Below, one piece after another: positions 1 to 18,310 of a stretch of DNA of 64,000 nucleotides; position 1 is the first letter of the stretch; every line of letters begins with the position of its first letter. Below the pieces are notes generated by a model that was not told where the DNA came from, searched no databases, and saw only the letters and a list, made by a program, of their open reading frames with translations. Origin of the DNA: a bacterium. GTDB lineage: Bacteria > Patescibacteriota > Minisyncoccia > Moranbacterales > GWC2-37-73. The position numbers and the translations under genes are program-made. Location: positions 114,319 to 178,318 of the forward strand of contig JBAXDL010000001.1 in the NCBI GenBank assembly GCA_037140955.1, written 5' to 3'.

Positions 1-101
1 AAGTCCTCAAAGTTTCCTAAAAAAATCTCGTCTTCTTTTTGCTCTGGATGTTTTTCTGCTGGCTTTTCTTGGGTAGGCATTTTTTGTTCTTCAAATTTCA
101 T
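1..101 (-). CDS. partial hypothetical ORF running off the window start (MKFEEQKMPTQEKPAEKHPEQKEDEIF...)
   Basis: ATG at 99-101 on the minus strand, open to position 1; weak RBS; K/E-rich. Confidence 0.2.
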   Translation of the reverse strand, partial: MKFEEQKMPTQEKPAEKHPEQKEDEIFLGNFED

Positions 102-402
102 GGTTTTATTTTTAAATTATTTAAGTTGGTTACTTGCTTTATAAAAAATCTAAACAAAAACGGACACCCGACCTGCGAAACAACAATTGGTATCAATGAA
201 GATCCGTTTGCGTTTTGGTCGGAGTGCCCGATTCCAGTTCGCAAACAGAACTAATAACGCCAAGCGTTAAAAGTTGAGATTCTTCACAAATAATAAATTG
301 TTGTTTCGCACATTAAATATACCATGAGATTGATTTTTCATCAATAAAATCACCTAAAACACTACAAAAACTAACTCGCTATTATGCAATAAATCACTAG
401 TT

Positions 403-1767
403 TTGCATAGTCTTAGCAAAACAAGTGATCTGTGTCATCAATGGTATATGGAAACATATACCACAGCTAGAATTGGCAATGAAGCAACCCAGCCTATCCA
501 GAAGGTCAGGTATGTACTATATGCAAGGAAATCAACCGAATCAGAGGAACGGCAAGTGCTTTCCATTGATTCCCAGGTGAATGAAATGCTCCAATTGGCA
601 GAGCGAGATAGCCTTGATGTGGTTGAGATTAGGCGTGAATCCCACAGTGCAAAAGAGTCTGGCCAGCGACCAGTTTACAAGGAAATTTTGGAGGATATAC
701 GCCGAGGGAGATTCAATGGAATACTAACATGGGCACCTGATCGCCTTTCCCGCAATGCAGGCGATCTGGGTAGCGTTGTGGATCTCATGGATCAACAACT
801 CCTTATGGAGATTCGTACCTACGGGCAAACATTCAAAAACTCACCAAATGAAAAGTTCCTTTTGATGATTCTTTGTAGCCAAGCGAAACTTGAAAACGAC
901 AACAAGAGTATCAATGTAAAACGGGGGCTACGAACAAGAGTGGAAATGGGATTATGGCCTGGCCCTGCACCCACTGGTTACATGAAAGAAAAACGAATGG
1001 ATCGAAAATGCGAAACATTGATTGATCCAGAGCGAGCGCCAGTTATTAAGAAGATGTTTGAGAAAGTCGCCTATGAACATTACAGTGGTCGCAAGATTTA
1101 CAACTGGCTCAAGTTTGATCTCAATTTCAGAAGTGCCTGCGGGAAAAAACATTTGAGCCTCGGAAATATTTACAAACTTTTGGACAATACTTTCTACTAC
1201 GGAATTTTCGAATATCCAAAAAATTCAGGAAACTGGTACACGGGAAAACACGAACCAATAATTACCAAAGAACTTTTCGATCTCGTCAAAAGTCAGATAA
1301 AAAGCCAAGTGTTGCGAGTTGAAGGAAAAGAATTCGCCTTTACAAAAATGATGACTTGCAAACTTTGCGGATCAGGCATATGCGCCGATGAAAAATTCAA
1401 AAAACAGCAAAACGGAAATGTTCATCGTTATGTGTATTATGGTTGCACCAAAGCCAGAGGAGCTGACTGTAAATGTGGTTATACTGAAGAAAAAGAAATC
1501 TTGAAACAATTTGAAGAATTGATAGATAAAATCAGTCTCAATGAGATTGAGATAAAAGCAAGGATTAAAGAAGATATTGAACGGTTTTCCAAAATGCGAA
1601 AATTCTTTTTAGGAGCCAAGGATAAAATCAGTGTTCCAAACATAGATATTCGAGGATATGCAAAGTATGTTTTAAGAGAAGGCACGAACGAAGAAAAACG
1701 AGAAATACTAGGTTGCCTTAAAAGTAGGATCTATCTTGCACAGAAGAAAATTACTTTAGAAAAATAG
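403..1767 (+). CDS. large serine recombinase (resolvase/invertase N-terminal catalytic domain + recombinase domain + zinc ribbon)
   Basis: N-terminal YVLYARKSTESEERQVLSIDSQ catalytic-serine motif; central recombinase domain; C-terminal Cys cluster (CKLCGSGIC...CTKARGADCKC). Confidence 0.85.
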   Translation: MHSLSKTSDLCHQWYMETYTTARIGNEATQPIQKVRYVLYARKSTESEERQVLSIDSQVNEMLQLAERDSLDVVEIRRESHSAKESGQRPVYKEILEDIRRGRFNGILTWAPDRLSRNAGDLGSVVDLMDQQLLMEIRTYGQTFKNSPNEKFLLMILCSQAKLENDNKSINVKRGLRTRVEMGLWPGPAPTGYMKEKRMDRKCETLIDPERAPVIKKMFEKVAYEHYSGRKIYNWLKFDLNFRSACGKKHLSLGNIYKLLDNTFYYGIFEYPKNSGNWYTGKHEPIITKELFDLVKSQIKSQVLRVEGKEFAFTKMMTCKLCGSGICADEKFKKQQNGNVHRYVYYGCTKARGADCKCGYTEEKEILKQFEELIDKISLNEIEIKARIKEDIERFSKMRKFFLGAKDKISVPNIDIRGYAKYVLREGTNEEKREILGCLKSRIYLAQKKITLEK

Positions 1768-1790
1768 ACAAAGAAGAGAAGTTATATAAA

Positions 1791-1821
1791 GCACAAAACA
1801 CGGAAAATCCGTGTTTTGTGC
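1791..1821 (+). terminator. rho-independent terminator after the recombinase
   Basis: perfect hairpin GCACAAAACACGG-AAAAT-CCGTGTTTTGTGC followed by T-rich run. Confidence 0.6.
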
Positions 1822-1867
1822 TTTATATAAAACATTCTTGCAGGAAGCATGTCGTGCTACCTGCTGT

Positions 1868-1925
1868 TGGCGGAGAGGAGAGGATTCGAACCTCCGATAC
1901 CATTTCTAGTATGCCACCTTTCTCA
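1868..1925 (-). pseudogene. orphan 3' half of a type II tRNA (variable arm, T-arm GGAGGTTCGAATCCTCT, acceptor CCTCTCC-G-CCA with encoded CCA)
   Basis: read on the minus strand; lies 9 nt downstream of the intact tRNA-Ser; sequence resembles but differs from its 3' half. Confidence 0.5.
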
Positions 1926-1934
1926 GTTTCAAAG

Positions 1935-2019
1935 CGGAGAGAACAGGATTCGAACCTGCGTAGAGTTGCCCCTAACACGCTTTCCAAGCGTGCTCCTTCA
2001 ACCACTCGGACATCTCTCC
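1935..2019 (-). tRNA. tRNA-Ser (anticodon GGA), type II with long variable arm
   Basis: acceptor GGAGAGA/TCTCTCC with discriminator G; D-loop GAGTGGTTGAA; anticodon stem CACGC/GCGTG with loop TTGGAAA; T-arm GCAGG-TTCGAAT-CCTGT; CCA not encoded. Confidence 0.75.
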
Positions 2020-2267
2020 GCATTGAAACTGAATCAAATTGAATTGGTGCACTCAAAAATTCAACTTTATTTTAAATGAAAACTGTTTTGAATTTTTGCC
2101 TGGGTTGCTTTTGCAACCCGCCAGATGTTCATATTCTTCACATCCAACCCACACTGCAACCTCTCCGTAACTAGTATCATGTATATTGTATAATGTATTA
2201 TGCATAAATACATAATTGCAAAACTCCATACATTATAAACTCTACATGATACATTATACTCAGAATT

Positions 2268-7121: not shown

Positions 7122-8015
7122 CTATCGTATTTCAATCCCCCTTAATGCCGCCACTCTCTCCTCAATCGGAGGATGTGTGGAAAAAAGTTTTGAAATGTTG
7201 CTACCCTTAAGCGGATTTGAAATGTATAGATGAGCTGTGGCGCGGTTTGCTGCTTCAAGTGGTTCTGGGTCAGCTGAAATTTTTTCCAAAGCCTTGGCAA
7301 GCCCTTCTGGATATCGTGTGAGGAGCGCAGCGGAAGCATCTGCCAAAAATTCTCTTTTGCGTGAGATGGCCACCTGAATCAACATGGCAGCAATTGGAGC
7401 CAAGATTGAAAGCACGATTGCCAAAATGAAAAAAATCATTTGCAATTGCCCGCCACCTTCATTGTCTGAACTTCTTTTACTGAAAATTCCATAGCGAAAC
7501 CAATCTGCCATCAAAGCAATAAATCCAACCAAAACGACAACAACTGTTGAAAGCAAAATGTCACGATTGCCAATGTGTGAAAGTTCATGCGCAATCACGC
7601 CTTCCAATTCGATTTTTTCAAGCTTGTCCAAGAGTCCGGTTGTCACACAAATCACTCCATGTTCAGGATCTCTTCCTGTTGCAAAAGCATTGGGTGCAGA
7701 GTCTTCAATGATATATATTTTTGGCGCCGGAAGACCAGCAGTTATGCACAGGTTTTCCACAAGGTGGTATAACTCCCTATTTTCCTCATGTGTAACCTCT
7801 TTTGCGCTACTCATAGAAAGCACAATTTTGTCACTCCACCAATATGAACCAAAACTCATGGCAATTGAAAACAAAACTGCACCATATAAAATCGAGCTGT
7901 TACCCATTGCTCCTGCAAAAACATAGCCCACGCCAATCACAAAAACAAGAAAACCTGAGATATATAACCAGGTTAATCTTGTGTTTTTGTCTGCTTGATC
8001 GTATAAAGTCGCCAT
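7122..8015 (-). CDS. htpX: zinc metalloprotease HtpX
   Basis: HELSHIGNRD (HEXXH) motif; 4 TM segments; C-terminal STHPPIEERV. Confidence 0.85.
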   Translation of the reverse strand: MATLYDQADKNTRLTWLYISGFLVFVIGVGYVFAGAMGNSSILYGAVLFSIAMSFGSYWWSDKIVLSMSSAKEVTHEENRELYHLVENLCITAGLPAPKIYIIEDSAPNAFATGRDPEHGVICVTTGLLDKLEKIELEGVIAHELSHIGNRDILLSTVVVVLVGFIALMADWFRYGIFSKRSSDNEGGGQLQMIFFILAIVLSILAPIAAMLIQVAISRKREFLADASAALLTRYPEGLAKALEKISADPEPLEAANRATAHLYISNPLKGSNISKLFSTHPPIEERVAALRGIEIR

Positions 8016-17290: not shown

Positions 17291-18310
17291 GATTTTTTCA
17301 TACAATTCTAAATAATTTTTTGCCATAACAAGGCTATCAAAATTATCCTTAGCGTATTTCCTACATTCTTTCCTGTCAAATTTGTCAGTGTTCTTCACTG
17401 CGGTAACTAACTCAGCAAAATCATCAGAAAGAAAGGCTATTTTTTCATTTTGTAGCATTTCCGGCAAGGGCCCGATAGTTGTGCCAATAATAGGAGTTCC
17501 GCAAGCCAGGGCCTCTCCCACCACCATAGGGCAAACTTCCGGCCTCCTGATTGGCAAAAGCAAAGCTGATGCACTTTTTAAGTATTCATAAATTTCCACA
17601 TGCGAAACTTCTCCCATATAGATTATATTTATCCCATCCAAAAATGGTTCTATTTTTTCTGCAAAAAATGCTTTTCTCTCCTTGGTGTTTCCGATTCTGC
17701 CAAAAATTAGTAATTTAACACCTGACTTTATTGCAATTTCAATAGCAGTATCTATCCCTTTTTGATCATTCAATCTTCCAACAAACATCAAATACTCCCC
17801 TTTTTCAAAAGAATAGCTTATTTTTTTTGTTGGCACTCCGTTATAAATAATCGCATCTGTTTTTAAAGTTCCTGATTGAGATTGACTGAGTGCATTAGTA
17901 TATAATTTGGTTTTTTCTATAATCTCAAAGGCAGCATCATCAATTCTGTTGTGAAAAGAAAGTAGACATGGAATTGAAACTTTTTCGCACAATGCGCTAG
18001 CATATCGCTGGGAGTGCAAGTGAATGATGTCAAAATCGCTTTCAAATTCTAAAACTTTTTCCTGACTGGCGATTTTTATATCCCTAAAGTCTCTTGGACT
18101 GAGCTTGGAAATGCTTGGCATGTTCCAAATACTTTTTTCTAATGAAACAATGTGTTTTGCTTTTGTGTGCCAATCACCTGGAGCAAACAAAGTCACATCA
18201 ATACCAAGCTCCAAAAAAGCATCTGTTAGATTCTGCGTAACAATCTCAGGACCACCCGTATCACCAAAAGGCGGGGCAACCATAGCAACACGCAGTTTTT
18301 TATTTGTCAT
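17279..18310 (-). CDS. glycosyltransferase family 4
   Basis: GT4 N-terminal and C-terminal Rossmann motifs. Confidence 0.7.
   Translation of the reverse strand: MTNKKLRVAMVAPPFGDTGGPEIVTQNLTDAFLELGIDVTLFAPGDWHTKAKHIVSLEKSIWNMPSISKLSPRDFRDIKIASQEKVLEFESDFDIIHLHSQRYASALCEKVSIPCLLSFHNRIDDAAFEIIEKTKLYTNALSQSQSGTLKTDAIIYNGVPTKKISYSFEKGEYLMFVGRLNDQKGIDTAIEIAIKSGVKLLIFGRIGNTKERKAFFAEKIEPFLDGINIIYMGEVSHVEIYEYLKSASALLLPIRRPEVCPMVVGEALACGTPIIGTTIGPLPEMLQNEKIAFLSDDFAELVTAVKNTDKFDRKECRKYAKDNFDSLVMAKNYLELYEKICNK

Follow-up and report, generated by a model that had tools for sequence, protein, structure and literature searches.

A serine integrase and its probable 16.85-kb element at an older tRNA-Ser(GGA) copy in a Patescibacteria genome

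Introduction

Does a large serine recombinase gene that lies beside tRNA-Ser(GGA) and the 3' half of a second tRNA mark an integrative element, and if so, where does the element end and what did it enter? The question is raised by one end of a 64,000-nucleotide stretch of a Moranbacterales genome (GenBank assembly GCA_037140955.1, contig JBAXDL010000001.1, positions 114,319 to 178,318), here called the window. An earlier note, made from its letters alone, had proposed that the recombinase belongs to an integrative element, possibly extending past the window start, and that the tRNA 3' half was duplicated upon integration. Natural serine integrases target mostly protein-coding or intergenic sites, and they are prized as genome-engineering tools.

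Results and discussion

The recombinase gene and its surroundings

The features between the window start and the tRNA locus are as follows.

1..110, minus strand: start of a 262-aa ORF, cargo inside the element (ORF list of locus L001, which is identical to the window)
160..240, unstranded: long, imperfect, GC-rich hairpin in the interval that separates the 262-aa gene from the divergent recombinase gene (folding z-scores)
365..447, plus strand: conserved promoter / 5' UTR region, 5' of the recombinase (DNA similarity, alignment of upstream regions)
448..1767, plus strand: large serine recombinase (predicted serine integrase), 439 aa (Pfam, PHROG and structure matches)
1782..1830, unstranded: perfect 23-bp hairpin, bidirectional terminator between recombinase and tRNA locus (repeat/fold analysis)
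1840..1866, minus strand: P' arm of attL, element side of the junction, CAGCAGGTAGCACGACATGCTTCCTGC (motif follows tRNA 3' ends in related loci)
1867..1873, minus strand: common core CCGCCAA of attL and attR (attL/attR comparison of this element)

The protein starts with a resolvase-type catalytic domain that holds the nucleophilic serine (PF00239, Resolvase, 69.4 bits, residues 38-183 of the 454-aa frame), followed by PF07508 (Recombinase) at 50.4 bits against a cut-off of 21.1. PF13408 (Zn_ribbon_recom) scores 24.6 bits, slightly below the Pfam cut-off of 25.3; the Cys pairs CKLCGS and YYGC..C.C are visible in the sequence. The translation carries the catalytic Y-x-R-x-S-T, and the motif YARKSTESEERQ and DRLSR can be read directly. 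Among phage families the phrog_95 integrase matches with an E-value of 2.6e-59, and the nearest solved structure is the SPbeta integrase YokA (E 1e-11). On its domain content, the product of 448-1767 is assigned as a large serine integrase. The gene and its own terminator, the 23-bp hairpin, bear out what the earlier note had said of both.

DNA similarity of the recombinase region to 80 loci starts at 365-400, and the motif TA[GA]C[AT]CG..ATGC within the conserved upstream region resembles the P' site in an alignment of upstream regions. A -75 motif was considered as the P arm and ruled out, as it occurs in all groups, even where the P end lies elsewhere. Further upstream, the segment 160-250 is GC-rich as described previously (49% GC, compared to 37% in the window), and the pairing of AAACGGA with TCCGTTT is real. 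Still, the segment forms one long imperfect hairpin rather than two, and the second pairing quoted amounts to 7/8, with CGCAAACA and not CGCAAACG. Its minimum free energies are -35.5 and -31.9 kcal/mol on the two strands (z -3.05 and -3.24); it matched no Rfam family and has no copy in other loci. The 262-aa ORF has no Pfam or PHROG match.

A tRNA-Ser(GGA) locus with an older copy

Beyond the terminator lies a tRNA locus of unusual layout.

1871..1922, minus strand: 3' part (from anticodon position 35 up to the discriminator) of an older copy of tRNA-Ser(GGA), forming the host's B arm of attL (homology)
1923..1935, minus strand: trailer of the intact tRNA, pairs with leader 2020-2032 (repeat analysis)
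1935..2019, minus strand: intact tRNA-Ser(GGA), allele B, without encoded CCA (ARAGORN; Rfam tRNA 56.9 bits)
2020..2032, minus strand: leader of the intact tRNA, complementary to the trailer (repeat analysis, tRNA comparison)
2045..2054, minus strand: GAGTGCACCA, D-loop end, D-stem 3' strand and anticodon-stem start of the older copy (10/10 match to allele A)
2055..2146, minus strand: insert of three hairpins within the older copy's D loop (RNAfold)
2147..2166, minus strand: 5' piece of the older copy, acceptor strand GGAGAGG and D-arm start (15/18 match to allele A)

The intact minus-strand tRNA-Ser(GGA) is where the earlier note had placed it, as both ARAGORN and Rfam agree, and it is identical to the copy in L165 at 85/85 positions. 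The neighbouring 3' part reads ...GGAGGTTCGAATCCTCTCCTCTCCG-CCA from 1922 to 1868, and its likeness to the intact gene, also noticed earlier, takes the form of a 27-nt repeat with 89% identity to the intact 3' end. The spacing between the two is 12 nt by homology (1934-1923) rather than the nine nucleotides first given. Over 52 positions, the 3' part agrees at 48 with the canonical Moranbacteria tRNA-Ser(GGA) (positions 36-87 of the allele found in L166 and L168), a likeness far beyond chance. It matches a different allele from that of the intact gene, and its anticodon-stem strand GGTGG is unable to pair with CACGC of the intact tRNA.

The 3' half had been described as an orphan, which is not strictly so. 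The 5' piece at 2147-2166 is complementary to CCTCTCC at 1872-1878, and the two pair in the minimum free energy fold. Because this partner lies on the far side of the intact gene, the older copy is read as enclosing the intact tRNA-Ser(GGA). The three-hairpin insert shows compensatory changes and is also present in L165, L166, L170 and L187, and, inside the other of the two tRNA alleles, in L189. Leader and trailer of the intact tRNA share 13 paired positions, compared to at most 8 in other scored tRNAs outside the nested locus, with one exception that reaches 11; that comparison refuted the idea of such pairing as a general tRNA feature of these genomes. The pairing covaries in L166. Searches with the outer tRNA pieces and the insert returned no Rfam family, and no match to Intron_gpI, the signal of a group I intron, was obtained at E<=10 within 1840-2280 of the window.

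These features could be taken to mean that the locus is a maintained "tRNA inside a tRNA" and not debris, with an outer tRNA-like shell (2147-2166 with 1872-1878), a conserved three-hairpin D-loop insert and a leader/trailer helix of 13 bp displaying the working tRNA at the place of the outer anticodon loop. We regard this as doubtful. Covariation in the outer acceptor was discounted as proof of function, given that intact canonical alleles differ likewise between lineages and that L187 has a decayed outer 3' piece. Such a shell might serve processing, or be a sacrificial attachment site that diverts tRNA-seeking integrases from an essential gene; if true, an insertion into the shell that spares the working tRNA would exemplify the latter.

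Related genomes without the recombinase

A comparison with an empty site, which the earlier note had advised, is provided by relatives in which pyruvate kinase (PK) and tRNA-Ser(GGA) are followed by 0-4 genes and then DnaG-RpoD, without recombinase. The gene is absent next to PK-tRNA-Ser(GGA) in L163/164, L165, L167, L168, L187/188 and L189-191, and all these loci continue to DnaG except L165, where the contig ends sooner. L165 has the same nested tRNA layout as the window. L166 has a related nested layout with no recombinase visible up to the contig end, about 340 nt past the fragment. At the junction, L165 reads ...CCCCTCCG|CTTTGCAAC... and the window reads ...CCTCTCCG|CCAACAGCAGG.... A metagenome scan with pyruvate kinase gave matches of at most 56% identity, informative for synteny only. 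The presence of the fragment in L165 and L166 identifies it as older host sequence, and not as a duplication resulting from integration; it presumably served as the target.

Element boundaries and attachment sites

No second att site or tRNA-like repeat was detected by repeat search, regular expressions or P-end HMM within the window and 9.5 kb upstream of it. Once more of the public contig had been fetched (L185), the left end was located about 15 kb beyond the window start, in line with the suspicion that the element might extend past it and with the advice to look upstream for a matching repeat. The conserved P end, 95 nt long and mimicking a tRNA T arm, forms the far end of the element; it occupies 17997-18090 of L185 (68 bits, E 1.6e-20), with the ancestral flank and DnaG/RpoD next to it. 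This places attR about 14,976 nt upstream of window position 1, at approximately 18090 of L185. The element thereby measures 16.85 kb, with the recombinase at its right end. An earlier candidate guide to the left boundary, L082, which holds the closest recombinase (93%), implied a minimal unit of 1.5 kb and was dropped once the P end was found.

On the tRNA-sense strand, the integrase-side boundary reads [host tRNA-like 3' end]-CCGCCAA-[P' arm CAGCAGGTAGCACGACATGC...] and the far boundary [P end ...GGAGGTTCTAACACGAGACGGC]-CCGCCAA-[host flank], and the identity segment between attL and attR is 7 nt. The P arm reproduces the T-arm 5' strand and T loop of a tRNA in register (GGAGGTTC.AA), with a T-loop-like block of GGTTCTAA in the P arm and GGTTCGAA in the B arm. 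The sequence past attR starts with the decayed remnant of a tRNA 3' end, and the flank, TspO, DnaG and RpoD come after it. Repeats flank the unit, one of them being a tRNA 3' end, and the integrase gene occupies one end of the unit. The crossover is assigned to the inside of the common core CCGCCAA, whose CCGC recurs in all elements compared. The reconstructed attP junction is ...GGTTCTAACACGAGACGGCCCGCCAACAGCAGGTAGCACGAC... and the reconstructed attB junction ...GGTTCGAATCCTCTCCTCTCCGCCAAATTTTAAAAGTAAGG...; attB is a reconstruction and not seen intact, because the downstream flank varies among relatives. In the reconstructed attP, dyad symmetry amounts to a weak 11/24, and mapping of the crossover dinucleotide by symmetry was dropped for this reason.

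Adjoining attR, the element encodes small and large terminase subunits and a ParB/N6-N4 DNA methylase, followed by about 11 kb of opposite-strand cargo with genes for a hexokinase, a kinase-like protein and an EamA transporter, among others. A small ORF of 132 aa lies next to the P end. Among the ORFs scanned, PHROG matches are limited to TerS, TerL and ParB/methylase, and eight other element ORFs gave no head, tail or other phage-function match; the scanned ORFs hold no capsid, portal or tail genes beside the terminase as a functional prophage would. The element is a phage-derived island. Its interior of about 11 kb looks cellular, and part of it may be a later rearrangement.

The integrase family in other loci

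The recombinase has more than 8000 homologues, the best 120 of which are 83-93% identical; they occur in MAGs of several Patescibacteria lineages, in several copies per genome and in unrelated contexts. Between loci, common DNA is limited to the recombinase gene and 60-345 nt upstream. Among 78 related genome loci whose recombinase ORF is intact, the junction motif ..TAGCACGA[GC]A.. lies downstream in 42, and 35 of these are at a called tRNA (28 Ser). It follows the tRNA 3' end on one side and one strand only, with 46 matches in 1.31 Mb of recombinase loci compared to 2 in 0.92 Mb of control loci, neither of the latter beside a tRNA. The P end was located in 46/78 loci; in each of them it lies upstream of the recombinase, in the tRNA-sense orientation, and its flanks diverge exactly after CCGC(A).

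Both ends were also found in 28 other loci, and both-ended elements span 2.6-18.5 kb. In 26 other elements the attL/attR cores comprise 4-8 nt, always with CCGC. Intact attP-like joints are present in L025 and L005, and near-identical elements sit at different tRNAs (L037/L039; L012/L019; L004/L173 versus L174 versus L005). A scan of viral contigs gave six matches of at most 73% and no att information. Judged from these junctions, the enzyme family appears to mobilise elements of 2.6-18.5 kb throughout Patescibacteria, with the tRNA genes for Ser, Trp and Gln as targets. It would represent a widespread serine integrase family that inserts at tRNA 3' ends, which is unusual for this enzyme class. 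Searches of the literature available here for LOOT RNA and for Patescibacteria serine recombinases gave nothing relevant.

Proposed explanation and its alternatives

In all likelihood, the window integrase belongs to a 16.85-kb integrative element that reaches from attL (1867-1873) to attR and is inserted at a pre-existing 3' copy of tRNA-Ser(GGA), with the family using the same architecture at tRNA genes elsewhere in Patescibacteria. A circular form with attP (P end, core and P') would have recombined with an attB consisting of a tRNA-Ser-type 3' end. Neither an excised circle nor an empty site from this same strain was seen. The integrase would make a staggered cut inside CCGC, i.e. the acceptor-strand end plus discriminator; with the cut at this position, the target's 3' end would be rebuilt and nothing functional broken. 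The target was presumably the non-functional copy 12 nt downstream of the working tRNA, which belongs to a tRNA-Ser locus, nested or duplicated, that is older than the insertion. The "classic" tRNA footprint invoked earlier applies by analogy only, since the enzyme is a serine and not a tyrosine integrase and the identity segment measures 7 nt.

That a tRNA 3' half with CCA sits between the intact tRNA and the recombinase could also indicate that the element entered the intact tRNA-Ser(GGA) and left the half as a displaced or duplicated att repeat. This is very improbable: the recombinase lies outside the tRNA/fragment pair, which is the wrong geometry, and the true repeat of the element is 16.85 kb away. 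The fragment derives from a different allele with unpairable stem strands (GGTGG and CACGC), it is shared with L165 and L166, where no recombinase is seen, and it begins in the anticodon loop whereas the family crosses over at the 3'-end CCGC. Still less credence is given to a tandem arrangement, in which fragment and P' would be an intact attP and the fragment the element's own P arm. P-P' joints do occur in L025 and L005, but the P-end HMM has no match in the window, and the signature TTCTAACACGAG of P ends is missing from the fragment, which is 48/52 identical to a host allele and lies within host sequence in both L165 and L166.

If the gene were a chromosomal resident without any element around it, be it a resolvase, an invertase or a domesticated solo gene, this would account for the empty search in the window plus 9.5 kb and for neighbouring genes without phage matches. 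This reading is extremely improbable in view of the P end and ancestral flank 16.85 kb away, what looks like a full integrase-type C-terminal region, the multiple homologues in unrelated contexts and the absence of the gene from the locus in all PK-syntenic relatives. The earlier note had named, as the case against its own reading, a fragment that belongs to a normal tandem tRNA array in relatives together with a conserved chromosomal recombinase; the fragment does lie in a pre-existing partial tRNA array, and the recombinase is not conserved chromosomal. A different matter is whether a real element is now immobile, i.e. a grounded, partly decayed prophage or satellite with a rearranged interior and a surviving integrase gene. 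We consider this possible, if rather unlikely. The scanned ORFs include no structural phage genes, and no recombination directionality factor was identified. In other loci TerL lies directly next to the integrase, but here the two are separated by the 11-kb opposite-strand block of cellular type. Conversely, the integrase ORF is intact with its Y-x-R-x-S-T and DRLSR motifs, its closest homologue reaches 93% identity, and both att sites score as high as those of other elements.

Comparison with known systems

Interrupted tRNA and rRNA genes are a known trait of the host phylum. In tRNA genes of Patescibacteria, group I introns lie at anticodon position 35/36 (PMC13011429). Interruptions of the older tRNA-Ser copy likewise fall near anticodon position 34/35 and in the D loop; unlike group I introns, they consist of some 92 nt of hairpins and of a complete second tRNA, with no intron signal. 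The locus suggests that tRNA remnants can be harmless landing pads for such elements.

In size (2.6-18.5 kb), integrase-bounded structure and a terminase without full virion module, the elements resemble phage-inducible chromosomal islands and grounded prophages; the likeness to both is judged from gene content, and the host here is Patescibacteria. The family would document the movement of mobile DNA, terminase-bearing phage-like islands and metabolic cargo among it, between the tiny Patescibacteria genomes.

Comparison to phiC31, Bxb1, TP901-1, A118/LI and SPbeta YokA shows the same order of resolvase and recombinase domains, here with a putative zinc-ribbon region after them, a short common core and an integrase gene beside one att site; an attP x attB logic with unlike arms also appears to be shared. 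Known serine integrases are distant in sequence from this recombinase (best PDB match E 1e-11), and unlike the phiC31/Bxb1 type this family targets tRNA 3' ends with an attP arm that imitates the tRNA T arm. Tentatively, it would offer attP/attB pairs with conserved, ubiquitous targets. Targeting of tRNA genes by serine integrases is rarely reported: in a 2020 survey, t(m)RNA genes held 14/297 of the elements with serine integrases, and such use was termed previously unreported there (PMC7192596).

P4-like islands of tyrosine integrases share with the present element a tRNA 3' end rebuilt at one junction, a tRNA-like repeat at the other, the integrase at the tRNA-proximal end, and sites that act as hot spots collecting tRNA fragments. 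Sublocation classes of tRNA-targeting islands were reportedly distinguished by Williams in 2002. Unlike in P4-like islands, the enzyme is a serine integrase, the identity covers 4-8 nt and not tens of nt, and the P arm is a degenerate mimic instead of an exact copy. The family would put to the test whether the targeting of tRNA genes is a special province of tyrosine integrases.

Recombinase gene and its surroundings

The first 11.8 kb of the window are identical to ENA contig k141_35444 (sample ERZ27300110). All components listed in the earlier note, i.e. the recombinase, intact tRNA-Ser(GGA), tRNA 3' part with CCA, terminator-like hairpin and GC-rich segment, are present in this sequence. 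The plus-strand ORF at 448-1767 encodes 439 aa with Resolvase and Recombinase domains and a marginal Zn_ribbon_recom match. The protein matches the PHROG integrase family phrog_95 (E 2.6e-59); among solved structures, the SPbeta serine integrase YokA comes closest. Its domain content places the enzyme among the large serine recombinases. Between the gene and the tRNA region lies a perfect 23-bp hairpin (1782-1830). The GC-rich segment (49% GC), described earlier as two hairpins of which one quoted pairing required correction, folds as a single long hairpin:

160-240, between the recombinase promoter and a divergent 262-aa gene; z ~-3 on either strand

It had no Rfam match and no copy in the other loci, and possibly forms a structure in the 5' UTR of the 262-aa gene.

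An integrase family tied to tRNA 3' ends

The recombinase protein has >8000 homologues, the best 120 of which (83-93% identical) stem from MAGs named Moran-, Nomura-, Taylor- and Campbell-bacteria and other Patescibacteria. Scanning species-representative genomes provided 80 recombinase loci, with two copies in several genomes (L-numbers denote fetched public genome loci). DNA similarity among these loci is confined to the gene and 60-345 nt upstream, and many loci show a second short match 0.8-9 kb downstream, equivalent to window 1838-1900, where the tRNA fragment ends and the adjoining sequence follows. This second match is a junction: 5-7 nt past the 3' end of a tRNA, which is oriented against the recombinase, comes ..[CG]AG.TAGCACGA[GC]A[TC]G... 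It was found in 42 of the 78 loci with an intact recombinase ORF, downstream in every case, and 35 of the 42 junctions lie at an ARAGORN tRNA (28 Ser with five anticodons, 5 Trp, 2 Gln). The junction pattern gave 46 matches in 1.31 Mb of recombinase loci versus 2 in 0.92 Mb of loci chosen by pyruvate kinase (PK), neither of the latter at a tRNA. As judged from sequence comparison, the recombinase is mobile and linked to tRNA 3' ends.

Serine tRNAs with A34 are unusual in bacteria. The commonest targets are genes called tRNA-Ser with anticodon ACT (loop TTACTAA; 11 of the 35 junction tRNAs), which often adjoin a divergent tRNA-Ser(GCT). Examples are:

L042, 2676-2765
L009, 12450-12539
L045, 20019-20108

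Element ends and architecture

In one group of loci upstream conservation starts sharply ~345 nt before the recombinase ATG. On the tRNA-sense strand this boundary reads CTGAAAGGTTCTAACACGAGGATCTCCGCA, a degenerate version of a tRNA T arm and acceptor end, and the flanks beyond are unrelated in every locus. A profile search located the conserved ~95-nt tRNA-like end (P end), which marks attR, the junction far from the integrase, in 46 of the 78 loci at 0.2-9.6 kb from the ATG, without exception upstream of the recombinase and on the tRNA-sense strand. Both ends are present in 28 loci, resulting in element sizes of 2.6-18.5 kb. Close comparison of the junction pairs in 26 elements revealed a common core of 4-8 nt that includes CCGC in all, i.e. 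the last acceptor-strand bases, the discriminator and the next C, and GGTTC.AA occurs in P arm and tRNA arm in the same register relative to the core. Intact P-core-P' joints (P', the element side of attL, the junction beside the integrase) were found in L025 and L005, and near-identical elements reside at different tRNAs (L037/L039; L012/L019; L004/L173 vs L174-177 vs L005). In their sequence organisation, these loci are built like attP × attB integrative elements in which a serine integrase is the driver and the attP arm would imitate the targeted tRNA.

In different samples, L004/L173, L174/L175/L177 and L005 combine one recombinase and left context with three tRNA-like partners, and many contigs break exactly at an att junction or inner tRNA 3' end (L170-L172 among the loci concerned). 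The varied partners and contig breaks suggest population-level variation or repeat-induced assembly breaks.

A conserved P'-site-like stretch with TA[GA]C[AT]CG..ATGC lies ~75 nt upstream of the recombinase ATG (365-447 in the window). The P ends of 36 loci hold a further inner copy of this type of motif (GCGCACGAGATGCGTCG) as well as GTCACTTTTGTCAC repeats, and all of these are candidate accessory or autoregulatory binding sites.

Inside elements, LOOT RNA (Rfam RF03000; 72-88 bits, gathering score 46.4) precedes the recombinase ATG by 160-280 nt and lies on the opposite strand, where it is followed by a gene for a small membrane or zinc-ribbon protein. It was seen by eye in about a dozen further loci and is absent from the window. 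Minus-strand positions are:

L009, 9714-9832
L023, 9725-9842
L045, 9719-9840
L058, 9730-9846
L069, 9744-9861

The 16.85-kb element of the window

The profile search returned no P end in the window or the 9.5 kb upstream, where the genes lack phage matches. This absence suggested a solo recombinase gene, a reading overturned once a P end was found farther out on the same contig. The contig extension (L185), fetched via a gene 8 kb upstream of the window, contains it at 17997-18090 (68 bits, E 1.6e-20), ~14,976 nt before window position 1, as ...GGAGGTTCTAACACGAGACGGCCCGCCAA|ATTTTAAAAGTAAGG.... Next to it lie a decayed tRNA 3' remnant (...CTCCTCTCCG) and, beyond that, CCTTCGTCCGCC..., a flank homologous to the sequence 3' of the simple tRNA-Ser(GGA) in L168; TspO, DnaG and RpoD come next. 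With CCGCCAA common to attL (window 1867-1873) and attR, the two positions give an element length of 16.85 kb.

Content of the element, from attR
132-aa ORF
ParB-N/N6-N4 methylase (phrog_498, E 1e-76)
Small terminase and large terminase (phrog_38, E 1e-76)
~11 kb on the other strand, including EcKL-like kinase, EamA, hexokinase and HD protein
Integrase

Relatives with PK 75-86% identical show PK, tRNA-Ser(GGA), 0-4 genes and DnaG-RpoD, and no recombinase. A serine-integrase element with these boundaries is very probable. That it is grounded, i.e. no longer mobile, is rather unlikely.

ARAGORN and Rfam call one minus-strand tRNA here, tRNA-Ser(GGA) at 1935-2019, its CCA not encoded. The tRNA 3' part (1922→1871, CCA 1870-1868, minus strand) starts 12 nt past this tRNA, a spacing previously put at nine. 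It shares 48 of 52 bases with the canonical tRNA-Ser(GGA) of Moranbacteria (positions 36-87; allele A, intact in L166 and L168); the intact tRNA of the window is another allele, B. L165, from the same sample (PK 81% identical), reads ...CCCCTCCG|CTTTGCAAC... versus ...CCTCTCCG|CCAACAGCAGG... in the window. As L165 has the same tRNA layout without any recombinase, the fragment is older than the insertion and was its target. The earlier interpretation holds in part: an integrative element is present, with attR in L185, and the fragment was not made by the insertion. Integration into the fragment breaks nothing.

A nested tRNA-Ser(GGA) locus

The 5' partner of the fragment, GGAGAGGTTGCAGTGTGGGT at 2166→2147, shares 15 of 18 bases with the allele A 5' end and complements the fragment acceptor strand. 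Between the two pieces of this older, interrupted outer copy lie:

2146→2055, minus: D-loop insert, three hairpins, ~92 nt
2054→2045, minus: ten further allele A bases
2020-2032: 13-nt leader, pairs with trailer
1935-2019, minus: intact tRNA-Ser(GGA), between leader and trailer
1923-1935: 13-nt trailer, pairs with leader

The same or permuted nested layouts, with a single intact tRNA-Ser(GGA) per genome at the locus, occur in L165, L166, L170-172, L187/188 and L189-192; others have a plain single gene. Pair counts over four sequences showed 92% of cells paired and 16 pairs changed on both sides. The outer copy as a working RNA was set aside: its acceptor differences parallel those among intact A alleles and its 3' piece is decayed in L187, which favours a remnant.

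The three-hairpin insert (~92-150 nt) is conserved in the D loop of a tRNA-Ser(GGA) copy in the window, L165, L166, L170, L187 and L189, hosted by allele A in the window and allele B in L189, with compensatory stem changes and AAGAAT[AT] conserved in one loop. With the 13-bp leader/trailer helix, the intact tRNA has its acceptor stem lengthened to ~20 bp. The window and L166 are both mismatched at the third position of the helix, and one C-G pair is exchanged for U-A in a compensatory change; among 118 scored tRNAs, none outside the nested locus has >11 leader/trailer pairs. No Rfam family, group I introns included, fits insert or helix. In L165 (~7850-7895) an additional insert of 45 nt, able to form a hairpin, sits in the T loop of the outer 3' piece. 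Public annotation places a 58-aa gene at 2053-2229 (minus strand), across the hairpin insert and the outer tRNA piece; this gene call is probably spurious.

Comparison with known systems

The element of the window shares the classic type of an integrase-bounded island at a tRNA, a class in which tyrosine integrases predominate. Among 2168 genomes surveyed in 2020, t(m)RNA sites were used by 44.5% of tyrosine-integrase elements and by 14 of 297 serine-integrase elements; according to that survey, no such use by a serine integrase had been described earlier (PMC7192596). Our literature search found no paper on this Patescibacteria serine-integrase family. The mechanism is a known one; the target choice, including the tRNA-mimicking attP arm, is unusual and systematic. 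The main interest is this target choice and the spread of the family across Patescibacteria, followed by the odd nested tRNA locus.
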